Source: a virus. From it: a DNA stretch of 64,000 nt. A program made the position numbers and the translations under genes. Position 1 is the stretch's first letter. Every line of letters begins with the position of its first letter. The DNA is taken from IMG/VR virus record IMGVR_UViG_3300046787_000129, positions 1-64,000 of that record; one strand, 5' to 3'. Below are positions 18,427-33,743 of this stretch, piece after piece. The notes beneath the pieces were generated by a model, which was given only the letters and a program-made list of their open reading frames with translations, did no database searches and had not been told where the DNA came from.

Positions 18427-18663
18427 TCACCATTTCTGTATAGGACAATGAGCTCTCTCAAGAGTAGTCTTGAGTCTCATAAAACATCCACACTTGGTGC
18501 ATTGCTCTAATCGATGATTAAAGAATTCACAGCTACGACAGATGGCCAACCTATCTTCTTTAAGCTGAGAATCGCTTCTAGGCTCCTTTGGATTGAATAG
18601 TGATAAGAACTGTACATCTTTCTTATTATTCGCTCCTGGGGCATCCTGTGGCTTCTCCGACAT
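18427..18663 (-). CDS. DUF6171-like Cys protein, paralog 1
   Basis: R..ICRSC...QCTKCGCFM.LKT....CP..KW. Confidence 0.75.
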   Translation of the reverse strand: MSEKPQDAPGANNKKDVQFLSLFNPKEPRSDSQLKEDRLAICRSCEFFNHRLEQCTKCGCFMRLKTTLERAHCPIQKW

Positions 18664-21189: not shown

Positions 21190-21621
21190 ATGACATCAGA
21201 AAGCATTGGAGCAGTATTTCCAACACAGATACCTGGAATTTCAGATAACGCAGATATTCAGCTCGCATTGAAGCTTTACCACTACGGACAATCAACATCT
21301 CCAGCTACTCAATCTCAGTCAGTTCGTAACTCTATTTCTGGACACTTAAACAATCTAGACGTTAGAACTATTGCCTTGGAGACTCAGGGTATTGGATCTA
21401 TCGTACAAAATGATGAGCCTACTGGAACCATTCCAAATGGATATATCTGGGTAGACAAAGACTCTGTAGCACCAGTAATCCCAGACTTTATTGCAAAGTA
21501 TCAAACATCTGCTCCAACTGGAACTATTGCAACTGGAGCTTTATGGGTAGACTCAGACTCAAGCCCACTAACAATGTATGTCTACAGCGGCACTGCATGG
21601 AGAGCGATTGGTAGCGTATAA
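21190..21621 (+). CDS. fibre-associated protein
   Basis: Two PTGTI..G..WVD.D repeats. Confidence 0.65.
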   Translation: MTSESIGAVFPTQIPGISDNADIQLALKLYHYGQSTSPATQSQSVRNSISGHLNNLDVRTIALETQGIGSIVQNDEPTGTIPNGYIWVDKDSVAPVIPDFIAKYQTSAPTGTIATGALWVDSDSSPLTMYVYSGTAWRAIGSV

Positions 21622-22235
21622 TGACAACGATTAGTTCAGTAGGAAAAGCAGCATATATTTACGATGCTGCAACAACAACTTGGTATCCACTAGCTGGCTC
21701 TACCAATCCAGCAGCAGACATTGACTGGACTGGAACTCAAAGCTTTGCAAACACAGCCACGTTCAAAGGTGGAGTAATCGCAAGACTTGGAACAAATAAT
21801 TTTCAGAATGCAGCAGCAAGAGATTCTGCAATACCTTCACCAGTAGCAGGAACAGTTTGCTTTATCCAAGATACAAAGCAGCTACAGTACTACGATAATG
21901 GCTGGAAGGTTTATGGGGATAATGCACTATTATCAACAAAGACTTCTGGATTCACCATAGCACTTACTGACTCGGGAAGAACCATTGAGGTAGACTCGGC
22001 AACTAACGTTGCCATCACAATTCCTAAAAATGCCACTGTAGCATTTCCAATTGGAACTCAGCTGTCATTTATACAGGTCGGAGCAGGCTCAGTAACCTTT
22101 GTCGCCGCAGATACTCTAGTGACGACAATACTTAGCAAAAATAGCAATAAGAAGATTGCGGCAAGATATTCAGCAGCAACCCTGATCAAGAAGTCAACCG
22201 ATTCCTGGTATCTAATCGGTGACTTGACGGCATAG
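21621..22235 (+). CDS. fibre protein with C-terminal socket domain (copy 1)
   Basis: VAFPIGTQ...GAG.V...K..A.YS.A.L.K..TD.W.L.GDL. Confidence 0.7.
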   Translation: MTTISSVGKAAYIYDAATTTWYPLAGSTNPAADIDWTGTQSFANTATFKGGVIARLGTNNFQNAAARDSAIPSPVAGTVCFIQDTKQLQYYDNGWKVYGDNALLSTKTSGFTIALTDSGRTIEVDSATNVAITIPKNATVAFPIGTQLSFIQVGAGSVTFVAADTLVTTILSKNSNKKIAARYSAATLIKKSTDSWYLIGDLTA

Positions 22236-22243
22236 GCTTAATC

Positions 22244-23038
22244 ATGCTAGGCTCAATAACTATATACGGTGGTAGCAAGGGTATGGTCGCCATGCCAAAT
22301 CTATCTGGGCTAACAAGAACTGCAGCAATTTCAGCTATTGAGTCAGCTGGTCTTGTATTCCTATCTAGCACAAACTCTACAACGTCAACATCTAGCGATG
22401 ATGGAAAAATATCTTCTCAGTCAATTGCAGCAGGCACTTTAGTAGATTACGAAAGTCCTATCTCGATAGGTATTTGGTCATACCAGGCACCAGCAGGGCC
22501 AGTTATCACTTTTGTTACAGATCCAACGGTATACGAAGTTAACGATGGAGACTATGAGTGTTCTCCAATAACAGCCTACATGAAAATACAGGATAGAAAA
22601 AATATTACTTATACTTACAGATACGTAGACGGAGTAAAGGATAACAGCTATACTCCAACTACCAATTTTGTTAGCCAAGCAAATACCATATACACCTATA
22701 ATTCTACTGACTGTGGATACGTTGCTCCACCAGCAGTTACATGCACAACCAGTCAGAGCCTTATATCTAATGGAACATGCAGCAATGGCTATAAGACTAA
22801 AACAGTTATGGACGTTACCAACTGTAGTGATGGAAGTTCAAGTTCTGGTAGTCCATATAATATAACTGAAGAATGCTGCGTATCATTAGGAACAACTTAT
22901 AGCAATTGTACCTCTTGCGTCTGTGCTTACAAGACTTGCGATGCTGTAACTAGCACACTTTGTGGATCTGTGACAACAACACACCCAGCAGTAAGAGTTT
23001 CAGTTTCTTGCACTGGTGGAGGTTTAGGCCCTTGCTAA
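22244..23038 (+). CDS. PASTA-domain plus Cys-rich putative adhesin
   Basis: MPNLSGLTRTAAISAIESAGL...GKISSQS.AAGT.V is a PASTA pattern; Cys-rich C-terminus. Confidence 0.7.
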   Translation: MLGSITIYGGSKGMVAMPNLSGLTRTAAISAIESAGLVFLSSTNSTTSTSSDDGKISSQSIAAGTLVDYESPISIGIWSYQAPAGPVITFVTDPTVYEVNDGDYECSPITAYMKIQDRKNITYTYRYVDGVKDNSYTPTTNFVSQANTIYTYNSTDCGYVAPPAVTCTTSQSLISNGTCSNGYKTKTVMDVTNCSDGSSSSGSPYNITEECCVSLGTTYSNCTSCVCAYKTCDAVTSTLCGSVTTTHPAVRVSVSCTGGGLGPC

Positions 23039-23305: not shown

Positions 23306-24547
23306 ATGACAATTTATACTAGACTGCAGATCAGACGAGGCGATGCCGCTGAGTGGATCGAAGCAAACCCAATACTTGCTGACGGTGAGCAGGCTCTAGA
23401 AAATGATACTCTAAAAACTAAGTTCGGTGATGGAGTCACAAACTACGTAGACCTTCCATACCAAGACCAACAGGGTCCAACAGGACCAACAGGTCCAATT
23501 GGAATAACAGGTCCTACAGGACCCAAGGGCGATACTGGATCTTTCGGTGGAGCGGTATTCACATATAGCTATCTAACAGACACAGTAGACTCAAATCCTG
23601 GATCTGGAAACCTAAAACTAAACAACACAATCTCTACAGCAACAGAGCTGTACATAAGCTTCTATGATGAGAATTCCGTAGACGCTTCCCCGTACTTAGA
23701 AACCATTGATGACTCTACTTCTGCAGTCAAGGGGCACTTCAAGATTCAGGAGGTAGCCAATGACAATAATTTTGCATATTACGCAATAATTGGAGAGCAC
23801 TACTTTCACGATACATACTTTGAGATTCCAATCCAATGGCTATCTGGTTCTATAACTTCCTGGACAAATGCTACAGATGTTACTATTACTTTTGTTAGAA
23901 CTGGCGACATGGGTGACACAGGTCCAACTGGGCCAACAGGGGCATCTGGACTAGATGGTGCCACAGGCCCAACAGGTCCACAAGGAGATCCAGGAGCAAC
24001 AGGGCCTGCTGGGTCAACAATAATAAATTGGCAGGGCGACTGGAGTGCACTAAGCACATACTCATCAAACGATATCGTATATTTTAATGGTAAGTCGTAC
24101 ATCTCGGTTGGAATATCTTATCCACCAGAAGATATAAACGCCACTCCAGAAAATATATCTACCTGGGAAATATTTGCATCTAGTGGAGCTTCTGGACCGA
24201 CTGGACCAACTGGTGCAACTGGCCCATCAGCACCTACCGTAACAGCAATAAATACAACATCTGCAACAGGCTATACCCTGCAGCTAACTGACAACAATCA
24301 GCTGCTATACCTAACTGGAACTTCTGCAGTAACTGTTACCATACCAGCTAATTCTTCGGTAGCCTTCCCAGTAGGATCTACAGTAAACTTTGTTCAGGCT
24401 AGTACTGGACAGGTTTCTGTAACTGGTCCAGCAGGAGGGTATTTAAACTATACCCCTGGAACGAAGACAAGAGCCCAATGGTCAATGGGGTCAATAATAA
24501 AGACAGATACTGATACTTGGCTTTTGGGCGGAGACCTAGTTAGCTAA
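23306..24547 (+). CDS. collagen-like tail fibre with C-terminal socket domain (copy 2)
   Basis: N-terminal QIRRG.AAEW...NP.L..GE...K.GDG; GPT repeats. Confidence 0.8.
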   Translation: MTIYTRLQIRRGDAAEWIEANPILADGEQALENDTLKTKFGDGVTNYVDLPYQDQQGPTGPTGPIGITGPTGPKGDTGSFGGAVFTYSYLTDTVDSNPGSGNLKLNNTISTATELYISFYDENSVDASPYLETIDDSTSAVKGHFKIQEVANDNNFAYYAIIGEHYFHDTYFEIPIQWLSGSITSWTNATDVTITFVRTGDMGDTGPTGPTGASGLDGATGPTGPQGDPGATGPAGSTIINWQGDWSALSTYSSNDIVYFNGKSYISVGISYPPEDINATPENISTWEIFASSGASGPTGPTGATGPSAPTVTAINTTSATGYTLQLTDNNQLLYLTGTSAVTVTIPANSSVAFPVGSTVNFVQASTGQVSVTGPAGGYLNYTPGTKTRAQWSMGSIIKTDTDTWLLGGDLVS

Positions 24548-25596
24548 TGAGGCTATTTCTTGGTTCCGTAATATCCCAGGGCCGAAAGTCCTTTAGAGAT
24601 ACATTCAATAGGGCAAACTTAACTGGTGAAGTGGGCAGAGCGTCTGACGGATCAGCTTGGAATATTATTAGAGGCACCTGGAATATTCTTAGCAATAAAG
24701 CAAAAGCCGATAGTACAGACTATCCAATAATCGCTCAGAACATGAATGTTTCAGATATACAGGTTGAGTTGTACGGAACATCTCAGGGTTCTTCCGCTGC
24801 CCTATGGGTAACTGACTCTGGCAACTGGTGGGCGGTTGGCCTGGTTCAGGAACCTACAGACTGTAACTGCACATACTACTACAATACGTATTATTATTAT
24901 GCAAATTCAACCTGTGTTGCATATAATCCTGGAAACTATGTGCCACCTGGACACAACGGTAACTACAATGCTGCAAATTGCAACTCTTATTATTGTTCAA
25001 AGTATACTGGAGGTGAGTGCACAAGCTCTGTATGTGTAGCATATAATGGATCTAACTGCAACAACTATGCCTATAACTATACAAATGGAACAACAAGATG
25101 TTCTGGCTCTTGGAATACGTCTAATTGTTCAACCTATGGTTGTACATCTTACGCACCATATTCTTGTATTGAAAATAGCTGCGGAAGCTATTCTCCAGGA
25201 TATAATAATGGCAATTTTAATAATGCATACACTAATGCAGCAACTGCATACAATTACGCTTGCATCATCCAGCAATCTGGACAGGATGGTCCATACGCAT
25301 CATGTCAAACCTGCTATCCACAATACGTTAGAATAATCCAGTCAGCCGCAAACACTGTATCTACAATAACCCAGTGGTCAGTTAGTGCTATAGCCTCAGC
25401 ACTAAGGGTAAAAACATCTGGATCTCAATTAACGATATCAGCATACAGCGACTCATCGATGGTAAGTCAAATTGGTTCAGACCTAGTTTATACGCCAACT
25501 GGAGTTACCATTACCCCAACATTTGGATTAACTGTTATTCCTTCGACGTATGGCCAAGGATATACTACCGATGAGATTAAGATCAGTAGAAACTAA
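24547..25596 (+). CDS. putative adhesin: beta-sandwich with 16-Cys insert (paralog A)
   Basis: DTFNRAN start; C/N/Y-rich insert. Confidence 0.75.
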   Translation: MRLFLGSVISQGRKSFRDTFNRANLTGEVGRASDGSAWNIIRGTWNILSNKAKADSTDYPIIAQNMNVSDIQVELYGTSQGSSAALWVTDSGNWWAVGLVQEPTDCNCTYYYNTYYYYANSTCVAYNPGNYVPPGHNGNYNAANCNSYYCSKYTGGECTSSVCVAYNGSNCNNYAYNYTNGTTRCSGSWNTSNCSTYGCTSYAPYSCIENSCGSYSPGYNNGNFNNAYTNAATAYNYACIIQQSGQDGPYASCQTCYPQYVRIIQSAANTVSTITQWSVSAIASALRVKTSGSQLTISAYSDSSMVSQIGSDLVYTPTGVTITPTFGLTVIPSTYGQGYTTDEIKISRN

Positions 25597-25615
25597 TTTT
25601 TGATATACTGGTATC

Positions 25616-25852
25616 ATGACAGAAAAATCAGCTTGGCAAAAGTACAAAGAAAAGCTTGGAGATACTCGTCCTTGGGATCTAGTTAATCCAGCAACTGAGT
25701 GGGCAGAAAAAGAAGTTGCCGATGCTCGCTACGATCTGTGTAAGGAATGTCCGTTCTTCATTAAGCTAACTGGTCAGTGCAAAGAATGCGGATGCATCAT
25801 GAGTGCAAAGACAAAACTGCTAAAGGCAACTTGCCCACAACACAAATGGTAA
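25616..25852 (+). CDS. DUF6171-like Cys protein, paralog 2 (leaderless)
   Basis: RPWDL...CKEC...QCKECGCIM.AKT....CP..KW. Confidence 0.75.
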   Translation: MTEKSAWQKYKEKLGDTRPWDLVNPATEWAEKEVADARYDLCKECPFFIKLTGQCKECGCIMSAKTKLLKATCPQHKW

Positions 25853-25888
25853 AAGAAAACCCCAGGATTTCTCCTGGGGTATCTTTTT
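25852..25888. terminator. bidirectional terminator
   Basis: ACCCCAGGA/TCCTGGGGT hairpin with A-run and T-run flanks between convergent genes. Confidence 0.75.
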
Positions 25889-25892
25889 GTGT

Positions 25893-26462
25893 CTAAAGTG
25901 TTTCTAATACTCTAACGTAACTAACACTAGAATAGTTTCCAGCAAAAGTCTTTACATCCTCAAATCTTGTAACATGTCCATGCTTTGGTGCATGAATCAT
26001 TTGTCCATTACCAGTATATATTCCAACATGGTATGCATCGTGTCTTCCGATATACTTAAAAACAACAATATCCCCAAGCTTCGGGGATCTAGTTACTTGT
26101 CCATAGTCTTCTTGTTTAGAAGCCCTATGCGTTATGTTGATATTCAGTTGTTCATAAAACCACATTGTTAGACCCGAACAGTCCCATCCAGCAGGAGAAG
26201 CTCCTGAGAATACGTACCACGTTTTGCCAACATGAGATTTTAATTGAGAGAATGCTTTTTGCATTTTTTCAGTATTTGAAGTGGCGACTAGATTGGCTAG
26301 CATTTGCTTTTGCCTTGCAGCCATTATTCTTGGGTTTAAATCGCCCTCTATATTTACTTGATTTACTACTGTAGTTACTTTCAAAGCTTCCGAACTTTCA
26401 GGGGTAACGCAGCCTGTTAGTGTTAGTACCAAGGTACCGATTGCAGCAATTTTAAACTTCAT
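25893..26462 (-). CDS. NlpC/P60 (C40) peptidoglycan endopeptidase, lipoprotein
   Basis: Lipobox LTGC; YVFSG...WDCSGL...GDIVVF...HVGIY.GNGQMIHA. Confidence 0.9.
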   Translation of the reverse strand: MKFKIAAIGTLVLTLTGCVTPESSEALKVTTVVNQVNIEGDLNPRIMAARQKQMLANLVATSNTEKMQKAFSQLKSHVGKTWYVFSGASPAGWDCSGLTMWFYEQLNINITHRASKQEDYGQVTRSPKLGDIVVFKYIGRHDAYHVGIYTGNGQMIHAPKHGHVTRFEDVKTFAGNYSSVSYVRVLETL

Positions 26463-26714
26463 TTTGCTACCTCCTTATTTTTTATGTTGTTACGACCTCT
26501 CTCACAGGTCCTGGCAGACAATATTCTTTCAGGTGGATAGAATATTTCCTTGAGTATGCCAGTGATTTCACGTTGTTGTCACTCTGTTTGTCACTATGTT
26601 CCTCTTAGAACAAAAACTTCCTTTAGAAGGAAGTTATCTATAAATTATACCATTATTTCGGGTACAGTCAATCAAAGATTGGCTAATTCTTTAATTATGG
26701 TATAATTAAGTATT

Positions 26715-27116
26715 ATGGCTAGAGGTACTGGAAGAATAGATGTTGGCAATAAGCCACCGCAAATACTATGGACAATTGTTCGTGGAGATACCGCTGCATT
26801 TACGGTGTACGTAACTGACGATGTAAAGGCTCCACTAACCCTGGCTGACTGGACTATTGCTATGGAGATTAAGCGTCCAACCGATGCTGCAAACTCTGGG
26901 GTAATAACCGATGCAGCAACAACTGTTCTAACCCTAACACCAGTTCACAATGTTTCAGACCCAGCTGGAGAGTTCACAGTATCTTTAACTGCAGCAGAGT
27001 CAACACAACTTGAGACTGGAGATATCTTTGACATCGAGCTTTCAACACAAGACAACGCTCTAGTTTGGACAGTAGCCCAGGGTAGCGTAAGTGTAATTGA
27101 GGATGTTACCAATTAA
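26715..27116 (+). CDS. small Ig-like virion protein (RGDT paralog 3)
   Basis: IVRGDT...FDIEL...WTVAQGSVSVIEDVT. Confidence 0.7.
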   Translation: MARGTGRIDVGNKPPQILWTIVRGDTAAFTVYVTDDVKAPLTLADWTIAMEIKRPTDAANSGVITDAATTVLTLTPVHNVSDPAGEFTVSLTAAESTQLETGDIFDIELSTQDNALVWTVAQGSVSVIEDVTN

Positions 27117-27340
27117 TGGCAACCTCGGTCATCAAGTTAAAAAATAATGGTGCCGTTAAAAAGGCAAAGTCAATTGCCTATGGAATTATAAAACTAACTT
27201 CTAAAACTAGAACTGTAAAGGTAAAACAAACTCTTCCATTTCGTGTAAAGTTTACGAGTGTGCAAGTTCCAGGGTATAGTGTAAATAGCCCAGCCCCAAT
27301 CGGCATAGCAGTTATCGGATATAGCAACTATATATTATAG
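27116..27340 (+). CDS. small basic partner protein
   Basis: 74 aa, coupled. Confidence 0.6.
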   Translation: MATSVIKLKNNGAVKKAKSIAYGIIKLTSKTRTVKVKQTLPFRVKFTSVQVPGYSVNSPAPIGIAVIGYSNYIL

Positions 27341-27371
27341 TGTATAATTGTATAATTAGGAGAGTTTAATA

Positions 27372-28241
27372 GTGACCACCACCAACAAAGACTTTAAGGT
27401 AAAACATGGGCTAGTCGTAGCCAATGGTGGAACCTTTGGTGGACCAGTAACTGTAGGAACTCCAACTGGTCCAGACCATGCAGCTACAAAAGACTATGTA
27501 GACGGAATATCACTGATAACAGGACCGACAGGAGCAGATGGCTCAATTGGTCCAACAGGAGCCGTAGGTCCAACAGGAGCAACTGGCCCAGCCGCAGAAT
27601 TCCTAGTGACCTCAACTCCTCCCTCATCACCACAAGAAGGTCAAATATGGTTTGATCCTGCAGCCGCTGCAGAGTATGTCTACTATGATGGATATTGGGT
27701 AGAGATATCAGGACCACAAGGAATTCAAGGTCCAACTGGTCCAACTGGACCAACTGGTCCAACTGGTCCCCTAGGGCCTACAGGTCCAGTGGCAGAGTTT
27801 TCAGTTACGCCTACTGCACCAGCTTCTCCACAAGAGGGGCAAATCTGGTTTGACCCATCAACCGCAGCAGAATACATTTATTATGACGGTGTCTGGATAG
27901 AGGTTTCTGGACCACAAGGCATCCAGGGTCCAACTGGACCAACTGGTCCCTCTGGAGTGTTGCCTAGCTTGTCCGTATCATCAGATATTACCTTATCATC
28001 TGGTAATAAATATTTTGTAGACACTTCTGCGGCAAGATCTCTAACTCTTCCAGCAGCCCCTAGCCTCGGGGATGAAATAAAGATCTTTGATGCCTCTAAC
28101 AGTTCTGCATCAAACAGTATCACGATACTAAATAATGGCATAAAAATAAACGGAGTCTTGGGCTCAGCTTCAATAAGCACAAACGGTGCAGATGCATTAT
28201 TTGTATATACTGGGACTACTTATGGATGGAAAATGAGCTAA
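27372..28241 (+). CDS. collagen-like fibre protein
   Basis: KDFKVKHGL N-terminus; GPT repeats; duplicated PQEGQIWFDP...YYDG.W module. Confidence 0.8.
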   Translation: MTTTNKDFKVKHGLVVANGGTFGGPVTVGTPTGPDHAATKDYVDGISLITGPTGADGSIGPTGAVGPTGATGPAAEFLVTSTPPSSPQEGQIWFDPAAAAEYVYYDGYWVEISGPQGIQGPTGPTGPTGPTGPLGPTGPVAEFSVTPTAPASPQEGQIWFDPSTAAEYIYYDGVWIEVSGPQGIQGPTGPTGPSGVLPSLSVSSDITLSSGNKYFVDTSAARSLTLPAAPSLGDEIKIFDASNSSASNSITILNNGIKINGVLGSASISTNGADALFVYTGTTYGWKMS

Positions 28242-28293
28242 CGCTCAGTCTTTAACTGACTCTTAGTCTAAATAGTGATATAATTGTCTTATC

Positions 28294-29997
28294 ATGACTT
28301 CCATTAATTTTCCAGATACCCCACAAGTAGATGACGAGTTCTCTGCTGGCACCAGAACATGGAAATGGGATGGAATAGCCTGGAGAATAGTCTCCGTATC
28401 AGTGGGGCCAACAGGACCACAAGGAAACACTGGAAACCTTGGACCGCAGGGGCCTACAGGCCCACAAGGTGATACTGGCCCACAGGGACCACAAGGAACC
28501 TCTATAAACTTTATAGGCACTGTAGCAGATGTTGCCAGCCTGCCATCTACTGGAAACTCAGCAAACGATGCGTACATCGTTCAAGCTGACGGTGACCTTT
28601 ACGTATGGGATGGCTCAGCCTGGGACAATGTAGGCCAGATTGTTGGACCACAAGGACCAACAGGTCCACAGGGCGACGAAGGTCCAGTAGGACCAACAGG
28701 ACCACAGGGACAAATTGGTCTAACTGGTGCAGACTCTACAGTAACAGGCCCGACAGGACCACAAGGTGTAGTAGGTCCAACAGGTGCGACAGGACCACAG
28801 GGCCCACAGGGAGACGTTGGGCCAACAGGACCAGTTGGAGATCAGGGAACTCCTGGTCTAAATGGAGATGAAGGACCACAGGGTCCAACTGGACCGCAGG
28901 GACCTACAGGCCCTACAGGCCCGACAGGACCACAAGGTGCAGACTCTAGCATAACTGGTCCAACAGGTGCCACGGGTGCATCAGGAGTTGTTTCAGTTAC
29001 TGGGCCAGTTACAAATACTGGAACATCTACTTCTGCAGTAATTGGACTTGACCAATCGTTAATATCTCTTGCACAGTCACAGGTGACTGACCTAATGTCA
29101 GACCTAGCAGACAAGGCACCAATCGCATCGCCAACATTCACTGGAACGGTAAATGTTACTGGCGACCTTTACGTATCTGGAACAACAACTACTGTAAATA
29201 CTCAAGACATTGTTGTTAGCGACCCAATGGTATACATCGGAGAAAACAACTCTTCAAACATAGTTGACCTAGGATTTGTTGCCTCATTTAATGACGGAAC
29301 TTACCAGCATACTGGATTGATTAGAGATGCTTCAGCAAGTAAGTGGAAGCTTTTCAAGGGGGTAACCGATGAGCCAACGACTACTGTAAACTTTGCTCAA
29401 GGCTCATTAGATACTCTAGCTACTGCAGCATTGGAGACATCAAGTATCACAGCAACCACGTCAGTTGATTTCACTGGTGCAACTATTACAGGAATTGACC
29501 TACTGCCTTCTCAGACTGGAAATACTGGAAAGTACCTTACAACCGACGGTACAGATGCTTCATGGGCAACTCTAAATGCTAGCCCAGCACTAGACGACCT
29601 ATCCGACGTAGCAATTACTTCAGTAGCCACTAACGATGTGGTTTACTACAACGGAACTTCCTGGGTAAATAAGAACGTCTCTGCAATTCCAGTGTCTACT
29701 AACGCACAAGCTGGAACAACTTATACCCTAGTACTTTCCGATGCTGGAAAGATAGTTGAGGCATCTAATGCTTCTGCAATTACTGTAACTATCCCAGCTA
29801 ACTCATCTGTTGCATATCCAGTTGGAACTCAGATAACTATTCTGCAGACTGGTGCTGGGCAGGTAACTGTAGCAGACCCATCGGGCGGTACACTAAATGC
29901 TACACCTGGAAAGAAGCTTCGTGCTCAATGGTCATCGGCAGTTCTTACAAAGAGAGCTACAGACACCTGGGTCCTAACTGGAGACTTGACAGCATAA
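28294..29997 (+). CDS. collagen-like tail fibre with C-terminal socket domain (copy 3)
   Basis: Long GPQ/GPT repeats; ...[25 protein letters not shown]. Confidence 0.8.
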
Positions 29998-31043
29998 TGG
30001 CAAACAAGCTAAGCGGCGTTGGCTCTTCGATACGAAAGAGACTACTAGATACCTTTGACAGATCAAACCAGTCTGGAATTGGAACGGCCTCGGATGGAAG
30101 CCTGTGGAATACTATCCGTGGAAGCTTCAGCATTTCTACAAATAAGGCTGTAGGCGTAGATGCTAACTATCCTATGGCAACACAGTCCCTGCCATTCTCA
30201 AATGTTGAGATTAACCTAAATGGAGCAGCTACAGGCTCAGCTGCAGCCCTTTGGGTAACTGACTCTGGCAACTGGTGGGCGGTAGGTCTAACTCAAGAGC
30301 CTACAGATTGTAACTGCACCTACTATTACAATACTTTTTATTACTACACAGCATCTACATGTGTTGGATACACACCTGGAAACTATGTTGGCTCATACAA
30401 TAATGGAAACTATAACGGTTCAAACTGTAACTATTACTACTGCTCATCGTATAGTGGAGGTCAGTGTGTAAGCTCTACATGCGTATCGTATAATGGCTCT
30501 AACTGTAATAATTATGCTTATAACACTACAAACAAGTCAACTAGATGTTCTGGATCTTGGAATGCATCTAACTGTGCATCTTATGGATGTACTGGATATG
30601 CCCCATATAGCTGTAACGCATATAGCTGTGGAAGCTGGAATGCCTCAACCATGAATGGTAGCTTTAATGCTCCTTATACAAACGCTCCAACAGCATATAA
30701 TTATGCCTGCAACATTCAGCAGTCTGGCCAGGCTGGACCATATGCATCATGCTCTACCTGTTACCCACAGTACATAAGAGTGCTACAGTCTGTAGGAAAT
30801 ACAGTGTCTACAATAACTCAGTGGTCAATTGCCAGCCTAGCCTCAGCACTAAAGGTCAAGACCTCTGGGTCTCAAATAACTATCTCAGCATACAGTGATC
30901 CTGACATGGTAACCCAGATTGGTTCAGATCTTGTCTATACTCCGACTAGCGTCACGATTACGCCAACATTTGGAATAACTGTTATTCCATCTGGTTATGG
31001 CCAAGGGTATACGACTGACAAGGTAGAAATAAAGAAGAATTAA
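29997..31043 (+). CDS. putative adhesin: beta-sandwich with 16-Cys insert (paralog B)
   Basis: Start MANKLSG by TAATG coupling; colinear with 24547. Confidence 0.75.
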   Translation: MANKLSGVGSSIRKRLLDTFDRSNQSGIGTASDGSLWNTIRGSFSISTNKAVGVDANYPMATQSLPFSNVEINLNGAATGSAAALWVTDSGNWWAVGLTQEPTDCNCTYYYNTFYYYTASTCVGYTPGNYVGSYNNGNYNGSNCNYYYCSSYSGGQCVSSTCVSYNGSNCNNYAYNTTNKSTRCSGSWNASNCASYGCTGYAPYSCNAYSCGSWNASTMNGSFNAPYTNAPTAYNYACNIQQSGQAGPYASCSTCYPQYIRVLQSVGNTVSTITQWSIASLASALKVKTSGSQITISAYSDPDMVTQIGSDLVYTPTSVTITPTFGITVIPSGYGQGYTTDKVEIKKN

Positions 31044-31079: not shown

Positions 31080-31769
31080 ATGAAAATAATTAGATTTTTC
31101 TCAGACAAGGCTATTGACAATATCGGTCAGCCATCAGCAATTAAAAACTTTTTGCCAAGCTGGTACAAAGAGGCGGAGACTACCTATCTAGGCTCGGATG
31201 GTTCAGAGGCCCCAGGACTTAAAAAGTGTGCTCCATACATGGATGCCCTACTCTCTGGATACACACTGGTAACCCCAGTAGATATCTTTGTTTCTAAGAA
31301 CGAAGACGGCAGCCTCAAGATAGGCTGGAATGGTCCAGGAGAAATGTCAGATTTTGTATCTGAGCGTCCAAAGGAATCTGGGGCAACCATGCCAAGACCA
31401 GCTGGACACTTTCCAAATCACATGGTCTGGCGAGGGTTTTGGGGAATTAATACTCCACGTGGATGGAGTGTTCTTATGACTCATCCATTAAATAGGTTTG
31501 ACCTTCCATTCACGACTACGTCTGGCATTATCGACAGCGATGCTTTTAGTGCATCAGGCAACATTCCATTCTTTATTCGGGAAGACTTTTCTGGAGTTAT
31601 CCCTGCAGGAACTCCGATTGCCCAGCTAATACCTATAAAGAGAGCTTCCTGGAGAATGGTAAAAAATGATAAAGGCCAGTGGAACAAGGAACACGAACAG
31701 GGTACTCAGGTAAGAAATCCAGAAACAAATTATAAAAAGAGCATGTGGAAAAGAAAAGAGTATAACTAA
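31080..31769 (+). CDS. DUF6065-like (dUTPase-fold suspected) protein, paralog 1
   Basis: KKC.P..DA...GY...HPLNR.DLPF...GI.D.D...PAGTP..Q.IP.KR..W. Confidence 0.65.
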   Translation: MKIIRFFSDKAIDNIGQPSAIKNFLPSWYKEAETTYLGSDGSEAPGLKKCAPYMDALLSGYTLVTPVDIFVSKNEDGSLKIGWNGPGEMSDFVSERPKESGATMPRPAGHFPNHMVWRGFWGINTPRGWSVLMTHPLNRFDLPFTTTSGIIDSDAFSASGNIPFFIREDFSGVIPAGTPIAQLIPIKRASWRMVKNDKGQWNKEHEQGTQVRNPETNYKKSMWKRKEYN

Positions 31770-32110
31770 TGGCACATACACACGAAAACGGCCAGGTACA
31801 TGGCAAGGTAACAACTCTAGACCTACTAAAGAGATACCTAGCACTAAAGGTTGAGAAGATGTCAGGAGTCAAGAAGTCTGTCATTAATCCTAACGTCTCT
31901 CCGCTAGACCAGATGTCGGGAATTGAGATTAACCACATCGCAATAGTCATTGATGGAGAAGTTCAGGATGTAATTAGAGCACAGAATAGAATGGCTGCAA
32001 TGATTCTAAGCAATCCAGAGTTCGTATTCTTTGAGCCATCTGAGACTACGGTAAAACTTGGATTTAAGTATCAAGATGGAAAGTTTATCAATCCAGAAGA
32101 GGAAAAGTAA
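31769..32110 (+). CDS. fibre-chaperone-like protein
   Basis: IAIVIDGEV...SNP.F...G.KYQDGKF..P. Confidence 0.55.
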   Translation: MAHTHENGQVHGKVTTLDLLKRYLALKVEKMSGVKKSVINPNVSPLDQMSGIEINHIAIVIDGEVQDVIRAQNRMAAMILSNPEFVFFEPSETTVKLGFKYQDGKFINPEEEK

Positions 32111-32773
32111 TTGGGTAAGAAGAAGATAACCTTTCACTCAGAAAGGACAGACCTAGACCTACTGAAGCCTATTCCGACTTCAAGGGCTATGCCAGACTGG
32201 TTTAGATCAATGCCAGGATCAATTCAGGGCGTAGAGACAGTTAAGAAGTGCGTACCAGTACTTGACGCACTAACAGCTGGATACGTTATTCCAATCCCAG
32301 CAGACGCATACTGGGACAAAGAGTCTAAGAGATTTGTTTCAGCTTTCGTAGACAAGCTAGACTCTGACCACATGAAAGAGCAAACATCATTTGTAGAAAT
32401 TCCAGACAACTTCGATCCACAGCCACACAAGTGGATTAATCGCTGGTTTATAAAGACACCAAAGGGATACAGCACACTATTCATTCACCCACTTAACAGA
32501 CAGGATCTACCGTTTAGATCATTCTCTGGAATTGTGGATACTGACAAGCATCCTATGCCAGTAAACTTTCCTTTTATTCTAGAGAAGGATTTCGATGGAG
32601 TAATCCCTGCAGGTACACCAATGATTCAGGCAATTCCATTCAAGAGGGACGACTGGGAGTCAACAATCATTGACACTGGAGACTCGTACTTCTATCCATA
32701 CTCGTCTGACAACATGAACCCACCATTTGCCTGGTATAAGCGTAAGTGGTGGAGTAGAAAGCTTTATAGCTAA
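32111..32773 (+). CDS. DUF6065-like protein, paralog 2
   Basis: Same motifs as 31080. Confidence 0.65.
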   Translation: MGKKKITFHSERTDLDLLKPIPTSRAMPDWFRSMPGSIQGVETVKKCVPVLDALTAGYVIPIPADAYWDKESKRFVSAFVDKLDSDHMKEQTSFVEIPDNFDPQPHKWINRWFIKTPKGYSTLFIHPLNRQDLPFRSFSGIVDTDKHPMPVNFPFILEKDFDGVIPAGTPMIQAIPFKRDDWESTIIDTGDSYFYPYSSDNMNPPFAWYKRKWWSRKLYS

Positions 32774-33511
32774 ATGATAAAACTTTTAATTGGAGACGCT
32801 TGTAAGCTAGATGTACAGTCTAATAGCGTAGACTTAATCATAACTCACCCACCATATCTAGGGATAGATACCGTTAGGTATGGTGGCGATAGCTCTAAGC
32901 AAATAAATTATTCTCAGGATAAGACAAAGATGCTGAAGCTTCTCAAAAAGGCTACAGACGAGATGGTCAGGGTTTTAAAGCCAGGAGGACACCTCGTAAT
33001 TGCCAACGGCAGAGACCAAGGAATAGACCTAGAGTACATTGTAAATGCTAGAAAGAATAAGCAGTTAAAGTATCTAGACTTTATTTGTCAGAACTCATAT
33101 AGCTCTAAAGACAACTCTAGTCAAAGTAGAATTATGAGCGAGTCTATAACAGTATGGCATCACTTTGTAAAAGACGGGGATGCATATTATAACCCCTTTA
33201 TCACAAAGAGATACAGTGACCCAGTGTGGAACTTGCCAGAAAACAATATAGATGCTACAGTAGATACTCTAATCCACAGAGAAATAAACATCATTGATAC
33301 AATGAATGTAGAAATACCAAAAAGATTTATAGAGATGTTTACAAAAAAGAATGCTATAGTTCTAGACCCATTTGGGGGATCTGGACTGGTAGCGGTAACA
33401 GCAGCAGAACTGGGTAGACGAGGAATATCTAACGATATCTCTGAGGACCAGAACAAGGCAGCAGAACAAAGAGTCTTGCTTACATTAGGAGAGAAATATG
33501 TCGGAAGCTAA
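32774..33511 (+). CDS. SAM-dependent amino-methyltransferase, N4/N6 beta-class fold
   Basis: DLIITHPPY (motif IV) ... VLDPFGGSG (motif I). Confidence 0.8.
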   Translation: MIKLLIGDACKLDVQSNSVDLIITHPPYLGIDTVRYGGDSSKQINYSQDKTKMLKLLKKATDEMVRVLKPGGHLVIANGRDQGIDLEYIVNARKNKQLKYLDFICQNSYSSKDNSSQSRIMSESITVWHHFVKDGDAYYNPFITKRYSDPVWNLPENNIDATVDTLIHREINIIDTMNVEIPKRFIEMFTKKNAIVLDPFGGSGLVAVTAAELGRRGISNDISEDQNKAAEQRVLLTLGEKYVGS

Positions 33512-33743
33512 ACCAGTAAGGCCATGGGACCTCTTCAATAAAAATAAGGAGAGAGCCTCAGCAGAGCTAAAAGAGAAGCGTATGGAGATTTGCAGAAGTT
33601 GTGAGTTCTTTGTATCTCTGACGCAGCAGTGCAAGAAGTGTGGATGCATTATGCCAGCAAAGACAATGCTAACAGAGGCATACTGTCCAGTACACAAATG
33701 GGAAGCAGAGCTTCCAAACGATAACTTACCATTCAAGGAATAG
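33498..33743 (+). CDS. DUF6171-like Cys protein, paralog 3
   Basis: RPWDL...CRSC...QCKKCGCIMPAKT....CP..KW. Confidence 0.75.
   Translation: MSEAKPVRPWDLFNKNKERASAELKEKRMEICRSCEFFVSLTQQCKKCGCIMPAKTMLTEAYCPVHKWEAELPNDNLPFKE

Follow-up and report, generated by a model that had tools for sequence, protein, structure and literature searches.

Mirror-symmetric cysteines in a putative hairpin insert of two candidate tail adhesins from an uncultured freshwater virus

The T-even phages T2 and T6 and the Salmonella phage S16 encode their gp38 adhesins in a separate small gene located after the distal fibre gene; the protein contains a polyglycine-II sandwich, and conserved structural motifs frame its hypervariable binding segments. 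At the tip of T4 gp37 the chain runs up and down within a trimer and makes up a thin needle, with HxH-Fe sites bracing it at regular heights. Nested cross-strand disulfides are known from theta-defensins, tachyplesin and protegrin, which are stand-alone hairpins of 17-18 residues with 2-3 rungs. In granulin modules and the Tenebrio antifreeze beta-helix, cysteines recur periodically and their disulfides are stacked into a rod that gives the thin, repetitive beta fold its stiffness; these bonds join sequence-adjacent hairpins or coils and thus follow a direct-repeat logic. In bovine antibodies with an ultralong third complementarity-determining region of the heavy chain (CDR H3), a beta-ribbon stalk projects a disulfide-rich hypervariable tip from a beta-sandwich (PMC8602281, PMC10523490). 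The present work concerns two proteins, termed ladder proteins A and B, encoded in a viral DNA stretch of 64,000 nucleotides (the window), which corresponds to positions 1 to 64,000 of IMG/VR record IMGVR_UViG_3300046787_000129. Each protein carries 16 cysteines in mirror-symmetric order within a single insert. The reading that we favour overall, and regard as fairly probable, is that both are distal receptor-binding adhesins with an evolvable disulfide-stapled hairpin, which supports the interpretation given in a preliminary description of this DNA. The genes and inserts are located as follows.

24547-25596, plus strand: ladder protein A, 349 amino acids; scaffold at about residues 11-103 and 257-349, with a 16-cysteine predicted hairpin insert
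24862-25314, plus strand: insert of A, from Cys106 to Cys256; predicted stalk 104-127/233-256, low-confidence elbow 128-147/213-232 and tip 145-212
29997-31043, plus strand: ladder protein B, 348 amino acids from the ATG at 29997; paralog of A, 68% identical
30309-30761, plus strand: insert of B, from first to last cysteine; 16-cysteine spacing the same as in A

The reading frame of B is open from 29928 (371 amino acids), but translation almost certainly begins with the ATG at 29997. In translation, A and B contain exactly 16 cysteines each, none of them outside the 151-residue insert. Those of A are residues 106, 108, 123, 145, 150, 158, 163, 171, 185, 194, 199, 207, 212, 239, 253 and 256, and the gaps between them are 1,14,21,4,7,4,7,13,8,4,7,4,26,13,2 in A and B alike, precisely the list given in the preliminary description. 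The near-palindromic character ascribed to this list is borne out. With mirror asymmetry defined as the total of the differences between mirror-related gaps, A scores 8 against a shuffled mean of 54.7, with 0 of 2000 shuffles as low, and its halves score 64 when read as direct repeats. Four of the five inner nested pairs of A share one register, with residue numbers summing to 357, the innermost pair being off by one; two of the three outer pairs sum to 362, and the C108/C253 pair is again off by one. The insert of A has 26 Asn and 26 Tyr in 151 residues (Asn plus Tyr, 34%), with 17% Tyr, 11% Cys and a single His. N-x-S/T sequons are not enriched in it (7 vs 5.1 in shuffles, p = 0.22).

A and B align without gaps across the insert. 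The spacing is indeed identical in the two, as claimed earlier, but ungapped paralogs of 68% identity would give this anyway, and the intervening residues, said there to vary, are no more variable than the rest: the non-cysteine residues of the insert are ~69% identical. By region, identity is 70-75% in the insert and falls to 52-54% in the N-terminal scaffold, where the divergence is largest and presumably fits each protein to its own fibre. The complete virus record (109,629 bp) has no copies of the ladder gene besides A and B. The informative variation is that between orthologs, not that between these two paralogs.

Homologs were collected by a word-indexed search, which gave 237, and by an exhaustive HMMER scan, which gave 279 clusters at 50% identity; all of those found are metagenomic, and the family also spans 144 IMG/VR loci. 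Among 238 full-length sequences, 213 have an even number of insert cysteines, 4 an odd number and 21 none. The counts extend from 8 to 46 in the cysteine-bearing full-length homologs and to ~50 in the IMG/VR loci, and they are even in 118 of 120 close homologs. The lengths of the left and right arms, each measured from the outermost cysteine to the central pair, are correlated across 16-177 residues (r = 0.958). When the insert is delimited by W94 and P258, two invariant residues of the scaffold, and cut at its midpoint, both halves possess equal numbers of cysteines in 106 of 114 sequences. The scaffold, on the other side of these bounds, has no cysteine at all in 21,433 residues of 114 aligned sequences, as against ~87 expected at the phage-wide 0.4%. 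Length variation by symmetric insertions and deletions in homologs had been set in advance as a check on the hairpin, and the arm correlation and the equal halves agree with it. Of the mirror and direct-repeat readings, the former gave the better fit in 120 of 120 sequences; a direct-repeat origin of the pattern was accordingly rejected, and no tandem or dispersed DNA repeat is present in the insert.

Across the family the putative hairpin comprises 90-238 residues and 4-25 rungs with 4-11 residues between them, the spacing being 4, 6, 7, 9, 10 or 11 residues according to subfamily. Among regular members, P0254 has seven putative rungs set 12 residues apart, P0172 has 16 at intervals of 5 residues and L109 has about 25; P0150 is a cysteine-free member. 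In one clade the cysteines are wholly replaced by Tyr-rich repeats. The metagenomic homologs P0084, P0124 and P0091 have basal cysteine clamps only (1,2,2,7 ... 7,7,1,2) and a cysteine-free centre of 173-198 residues, and stapling therefore appears to be modular along the hairpin.

The AlphaFold2 (AF2) model of A, based on a 114-sequence alignment, has a mean predicted local distance difference test score (pLDDT) of 88.5. In the model, residues 11-103 and 257-349 form a beta-sandwich with the insert placed between strands. Two paired strands of 24 residues each, 104-127 and 233-256, hold C106, C108 and C123 and C239, C253 and C256, respectively, and the tip (145-212) is predicted to hold six shorter strands, together with 10 of the 16 cysteines (pLDDT ~80-86). 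Structure prediction had likewise been named beforehand as a check, and the modelled long paired strands and strand-rich tip agree with a hairpin insert protruding from a beta-sandwich. As a rough estimate, the spike would be 100 Angstrom or more in length.

The scaffold has the concanavalin A (ConA)-like/carbohydrate-binding module (CBM) two-sheet jelly-roll fold, as identified in an all-against-all structural search with VIA-align. The matches include CBM66 (4b1m; Z 16.0, root-mean-square deviation 2.8, 148 aligned), the C-terminal receptor-binding domain of mycobacteriophage TM4 gp23 (9n6a; Z 15.4), the mycobacteriophage Douge baseplate protein (8zdo; Z 15.4), the G7C gp63.1 fibre (Z 10.9) and many lectins and glycoside hydrolase-associated CBMs (Z 10-15). 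A Foldseek search of the A model against the PDB gave nothing at E<=0.001, and its weak matches are lectins or CBMs and long-beta-hairpin proteins, for example the lysenin and aerolysin pores. A search of BFVD ranked family members from uncultured phages first; next come minor tail and tail-fibre proteins encoded by phages of Arthrobacter, Rhodococcus, Gordonia, Mycobacterium and Streptomyces. A and B have no match among Pfam, PHROG or NCBIfam families, the family profile has none among PDB sequences at E<=1, and tblastn and megablast searches of 50,697 deposited phage genomes gave no match to the family. Among bacterial genomes (185,579 species), two short contigs of metagenome-assembled genomes match; both are from lake-metagenome bins, are possibly mis-binned phage DNA and offer no clue to the host. 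The literature searched did not describe a cysteine or disulfide ladder of this architecture in phage tail proteins.

Pairing was approached through sequence pairs that differ by two cysteines at unchanged length, a situation encountered in six or so lineages. Exact mirror partners were lost in four independent lineages (Cys 3 and 12 of 14, 4 and 9 of 12, 6 and 21 of 26, 3 and 16 of 18), with a chance of ~7% per event; in P0118, a C->V change accompanies a C->P change and the contexts are otherwise conserved. Joint loss of this kind, at two distant positions, is classically taken to indicate a bond. Furthermore, 122 of the 213 even counts (57%) are 2 mod 4, that is, they give an odd number of cysteines per arm, and complete within-arm pairing is therefore impossible in these members and cross-arm bonds are forced. 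The same counts rule out, in that 57%, an arrangement in which all cysteines are in Cys4 metal sites, and the features of Cys4 zinc or metallothionein-like proteins (counts in multiples of four; dense CxC or CC motifs without aromatics) were not found. Because of the paired loss, the 2 mod 4 counts and the cysteine-free scaffold, we infer disulfide bonds in the rungs. Published work documents virion disulfides in phage tails (PMC10811340, PMC13576161).

Several observations weigh against nested disulfides on a hairpin. The base motif CxC...CxxC is out of register by one residue, and rung periods of 5, 7 and 11 residues misfit a flat ribbon with disulfides on a single face, so that bulges or kinks would be needed. 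The elbow of the model, 128-147 and 213-232, has a pLDDT of only 60-72. Two of the homologs, P0052 and P0103, the odd-count exceptions among the first 120, have unmatched arms, and in some members CC doublets face CxxC motifs and have the look of four-cysteine clusters. Virions are also assembled in the reducing cytoplasm. Finally, a trimeric needle with metal sites along its axis would yield the same mirror rule. As to the sequences concerned, one arm of P0103 and P0052 has a run of cysteines six residues apart and the other arm has none; recombination, gene decay or chimeric assembly may account for the two. In the proteins encoded at L109:6819-8195 (~50 cysteines) and L113:6948-8210 (42 cysteines), the left arm contains CC doublets every 9-12 residues and the right arm CxxC/Cx4C pairs with the same period, which amounts to four cysteines per rung.

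The base slip and the odd rung periods would suit a real hairpin in which the cysteines are not in nested intrachain bonds and instead stay reduced, cross-link hairpins, subunits or the fibre, or form a granulin-like staggered ladder. Two or three further losses in the CC-doublet subfamilies (P0036, P0045), in which the paired positions are off by one index, point the same way, and interchain disulfide networks are present in phage tails (PMC10811340). We nevertheless consider this arrangement improbable in view of the four clean losses of exact mirror partners, the odd number of cysteines per arm that forces cross-arm bonds in more than half of the members, and a unique central loop and symmetry axis kept across the whole range of arm lengths.

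Metal ions could also make up the ladder, with cysteine thiolates at matching strand heights coordinating them either within one chain or, in a trimer that forms a six-stranded needle, along its axis. This reading accounts equally well for the mirror spacing and the even counts, members with 42-50 cysteines set CC doublets against CxxC or Cx4C on the other arm, and the partner fibre described below is collagen-like and therefore trimeric; the needle tip of T4 gp37 with its His-Fe sites, said to have been described by Bartual and colleagues in 2010, would be a precedent. The 2 mod 4 counts mean, however, that not all cysteines can be in Cys4 sites, the insert of A has a lone His, and the pairwise loss of mirror partners with no other change better suits a disulfide. 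As AF2 also builds the ribbon with confidence as a monomer in its prediction, a metal ladder seems a rather poor prospect beside disulfide rungs.

The insert is far more variable than the scaffold in at least one comparison between orthologs. Both scaffold halves of P0005 are 92-94% identical to those of A, and its insert is of another type with 14 cysteines, in which the elbows are 12-15% and the tip 47% identical to A; the insert therefore behaves like a cassette that can be exchanged. The genes that precede and follow the ladder genes on the same strand are listed here.

23306-24547, plus strand: collagen-like tail-fibre gene 1, 413 amino acids; Pfam Mtd_N N-terminus and Collagen, GXY repeats; PHROG tail-fibre families
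28294-29997, plus strand: collagen-like tail-fibre gene 2, 567 amino acids; identified by Pfam and PHROG; its stop overlaps the start of B
31080-32773, plus strand: three genes after B, of 229, 113 and 220 amino acids; a phrog_7084-like pair plus a small protein

Each ladder gene is coupled to the fibre gene before it by a TAATG overlap (at 24547 and 29997), in which the ladder ATG begins on the last base of the fibre stop codon, and a GGAG is located 14 nucleotides upstream of the ladder start. The context was compared in 74 related IMG/VR loci, 70 cysteine-bearing and 4 cysteine-free. A fibre homolog abuts the ladder gene upstream in 47-49 of the 70 and in all 4, and homologs of the three genes at 31080-32773 follow it in 63-64 of the 70 and again in all 4. 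These three genes have no Pfam or NCBIfam family match, and their products may be assembly factors or additional components of the tip.

The three conserved genes, and the fact that A and B keep the insert better than the N-terminal scaffold, would also be in keeping with a protein that is no adhesin and serves as a fibre-assembly factor, decoration or spacer, its hairpin acting as a rigid ruler or docking arm. We think this unlikely, since the scaffold shares its fold with known phage receptor-binding and carbohydrate-binding domains, a hypervariable insert sits like a cassette on a nearly identical scaffold in P0005, and the position coupled to a distal fibre gene resembles that of gp38-type adhesins.

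Further genes of the same region were noted. A third collagen-like fibre gene (27372-28241, 289 amino acids) has an internally duplicated motif and no ladder gene behind it. Within the tail-fibre block, the other strand encodes an NlpC/P60 peptidase (25893-26462, minus strand) whose N-terminus resembles that of a lipoprotein. A gene at 22244-23038, directly behind a fibre-like gene (21621-22235), encodes a PASTA-domain protein with 14 cysteines in its C-terminal half, the spacing of which is not mirror-symmetric; it brings the cysteine-rich putative tail proteins to three, the Cys content of this phage's proteins being otherwise 0.4%. Asn/Tyr richness and the Mtd_N domain of the fibre had pointed to a diversity-generating retroelement; this was rejected, as the complete record of 109,629 bp has no reverse transcriptase match (RVT_1), and no repeat of the insert is present in the record apart from the paralog.

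The small genes of a six-cysteine, DUF6171-like protein also accompany the family. Three copies are found in the window, alongside the three cysteine-rich tail proteins.

25616-25852, plus strand: DUF6171-like protein, CxxC-x9-CxxCxC-x12-CP..KW; 20 nucleotides after A
33498-33743, plus strand: second DUF6171-like protein, 2.4 kb downstream of B, between DNA-methylase-like and GT2-TPR genes
18430-18582, minus strand: third DUF6171-like copy, with six cysteines

The protein is 78-81 amino acids long with six invariant cysteines. A DUF6171-like gene is located downstream on the same strand within 4 kb of 62 of 62 cysteine-bearing ladder genes with enough flank, and beside cysteine-free ladder genes in 0 of roughly 14 loci; 4 of 5 cysteine-free phage records have no DUF6171-like copy at all. 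In L100, which contains both kinds of paralog, the copy abuts the cysteine-bearing one and not the cysteine-free one. The link is weakened by several other observations. The cysteine-free members form one clade, and the contrast therefore represents a single evolutionary change. A GlcNAc-type glycosyltransferase is fused to, or neighbours, about one third of DUF6171-like copies. The gene of cultured Stenotrophomonas phages lies among small genes with no annotated tail gene near, and in cyanophage S-CBS2 it follows a cysteine-poor tail fibre. A recognisable oxidoreductase was considered and rejected, the AF2 model of the DUF6171-like protein (pLDDT 84) having no fold match (Z<=3.1), and no literature on DUF6171 was found. 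The protein is a possible partner of the ladder protein, and the link as it stands is an unexplained association. With regard to the glycosyltransferases, the DUF6171-like domain makes up the C-terminal part of, or comes directly after, a PF11397 glycosyltransferase (GlcNAc-type, Skp1-type polypeptide) at L005:8859-10298, L013:5903-7192 and in relatives, and tail proteins or DNA might be glycosylated.

The adhesin reading builds on the observed cysteine pattern and its mirror rule, the paired loss, the sandwich fold, the gene coupling and the cassette-like variability; from these we infer the chemistry of the rungs, their pairing, the binding to a receptor and the oligomeric state. Translation of each adhesin would be coupled to that of its own collagen-like tail fibre, on whose C-terminal domain the adhesin would probably dock. 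Its body would be a lectin/CBM-type beta-sandwich, from which a chain of ~150 residues rich in Asn, Tyr and Ser would leave between two strands and return as an antiparallel two-stranded ribbon with stalk, elbow and tip. Cysteines at matching heights on both arms would form nested intrachain disulfides, from the outermost C1-C16 to the innermost C8-C9, once the particle is out of the reducing cytoplasm, and the spike would then be braced in oxic lake water. The rungs would rigidify a hairpin that is thin, long and otherwise unstable. Length and surface would then be free to change, with rungs gained or lost as mirror pairs, and swaps of whole inserts could retarget the phage to other host-surface receptors.

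A wider proposal, put forward tentatively as a possible rather than a probable one, is that this evolvable cystine-ladder antenna is a new protein architecture: a hairpin of almost any length (4 to ~25 rungs) with nested disulfides that evolves under the mirror rule, a rung being gained or lost only as a pair with one cysteine per arm. It would serve as a host-range cassette on a lectin-like tail adhesin of lake phages, and the DUF6171-like six-cysteine protein might aid its folding or oxidation. No curated family, solved structure or paper that we found describes the ladder architecture. Phage receptor-binding proteins set host range, and the ladder family appears to use an undescribed solution, a thin, very long and freely resizable spike stapled by cysteines on a lectin-type body. 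If so, compensated evolution could be read from sequence, as rung partners are gained and lost together, and a protein with 16-50 cysteines would have to reach its correct oxidised form once it has been assembled in the reducing cytoplasm; protein design would also gain a ready-made framework for rigid hairpins used in display and tunable in length. The family further offers a way into how uncultured phages abundant in fresh water recognise their hosts.

Among known systems, the ConA-like and CBM receptor-binding domains (TM4 gp23, Douge, CBM66) possess the same sandwich, with Z 15.4-16.0 over 148-171 aligned residues that cover the sandwich only, and the ConA-like receptor-binding domains of actinophage tails share the tail-protein context as well; there is no detectable sequence relationship, the identity in structural alignments being 8-14%. 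As in gp38-type adhesins, the gene is located directly behind a distal fibre gene and coupled to it, whereas the polyglycine-II sandwich of gp38 with its glycine-rich motifs is absent: the AF2 model predicts a strand sandwich and a ribbon, and no family match was found. T4 gp37 has HxH motifs on its up and down strands, in contrast to the one His in the insert of A, and neither gp37 nor gp38 is homologous to the ladder proteins, in which a lectin-type body is combined with putative braces of cysteine pairs. The bovine ultralong CDR H3 resembles the family in its even cysteine numbers and variable patterns, but its cysteines are confined to a compact knob on a rungless stalk, while in the ladder proteins up to ~25 rungs would extend along the whole hairpin. 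With the cystine-ladder peptides the family has in common an antiparallel hairpin with cysteines matched on both strands, as suggested by mirror spacing and AF2 strands, but at ten times the scale (90-238 residues, 4-25 rungs) and inserted in a domain. Unlike granulin and the Tenebrio antifreeze protein, it follows a mirror rather than a direct-repeat logic, and does so in all 120 sequences compared.

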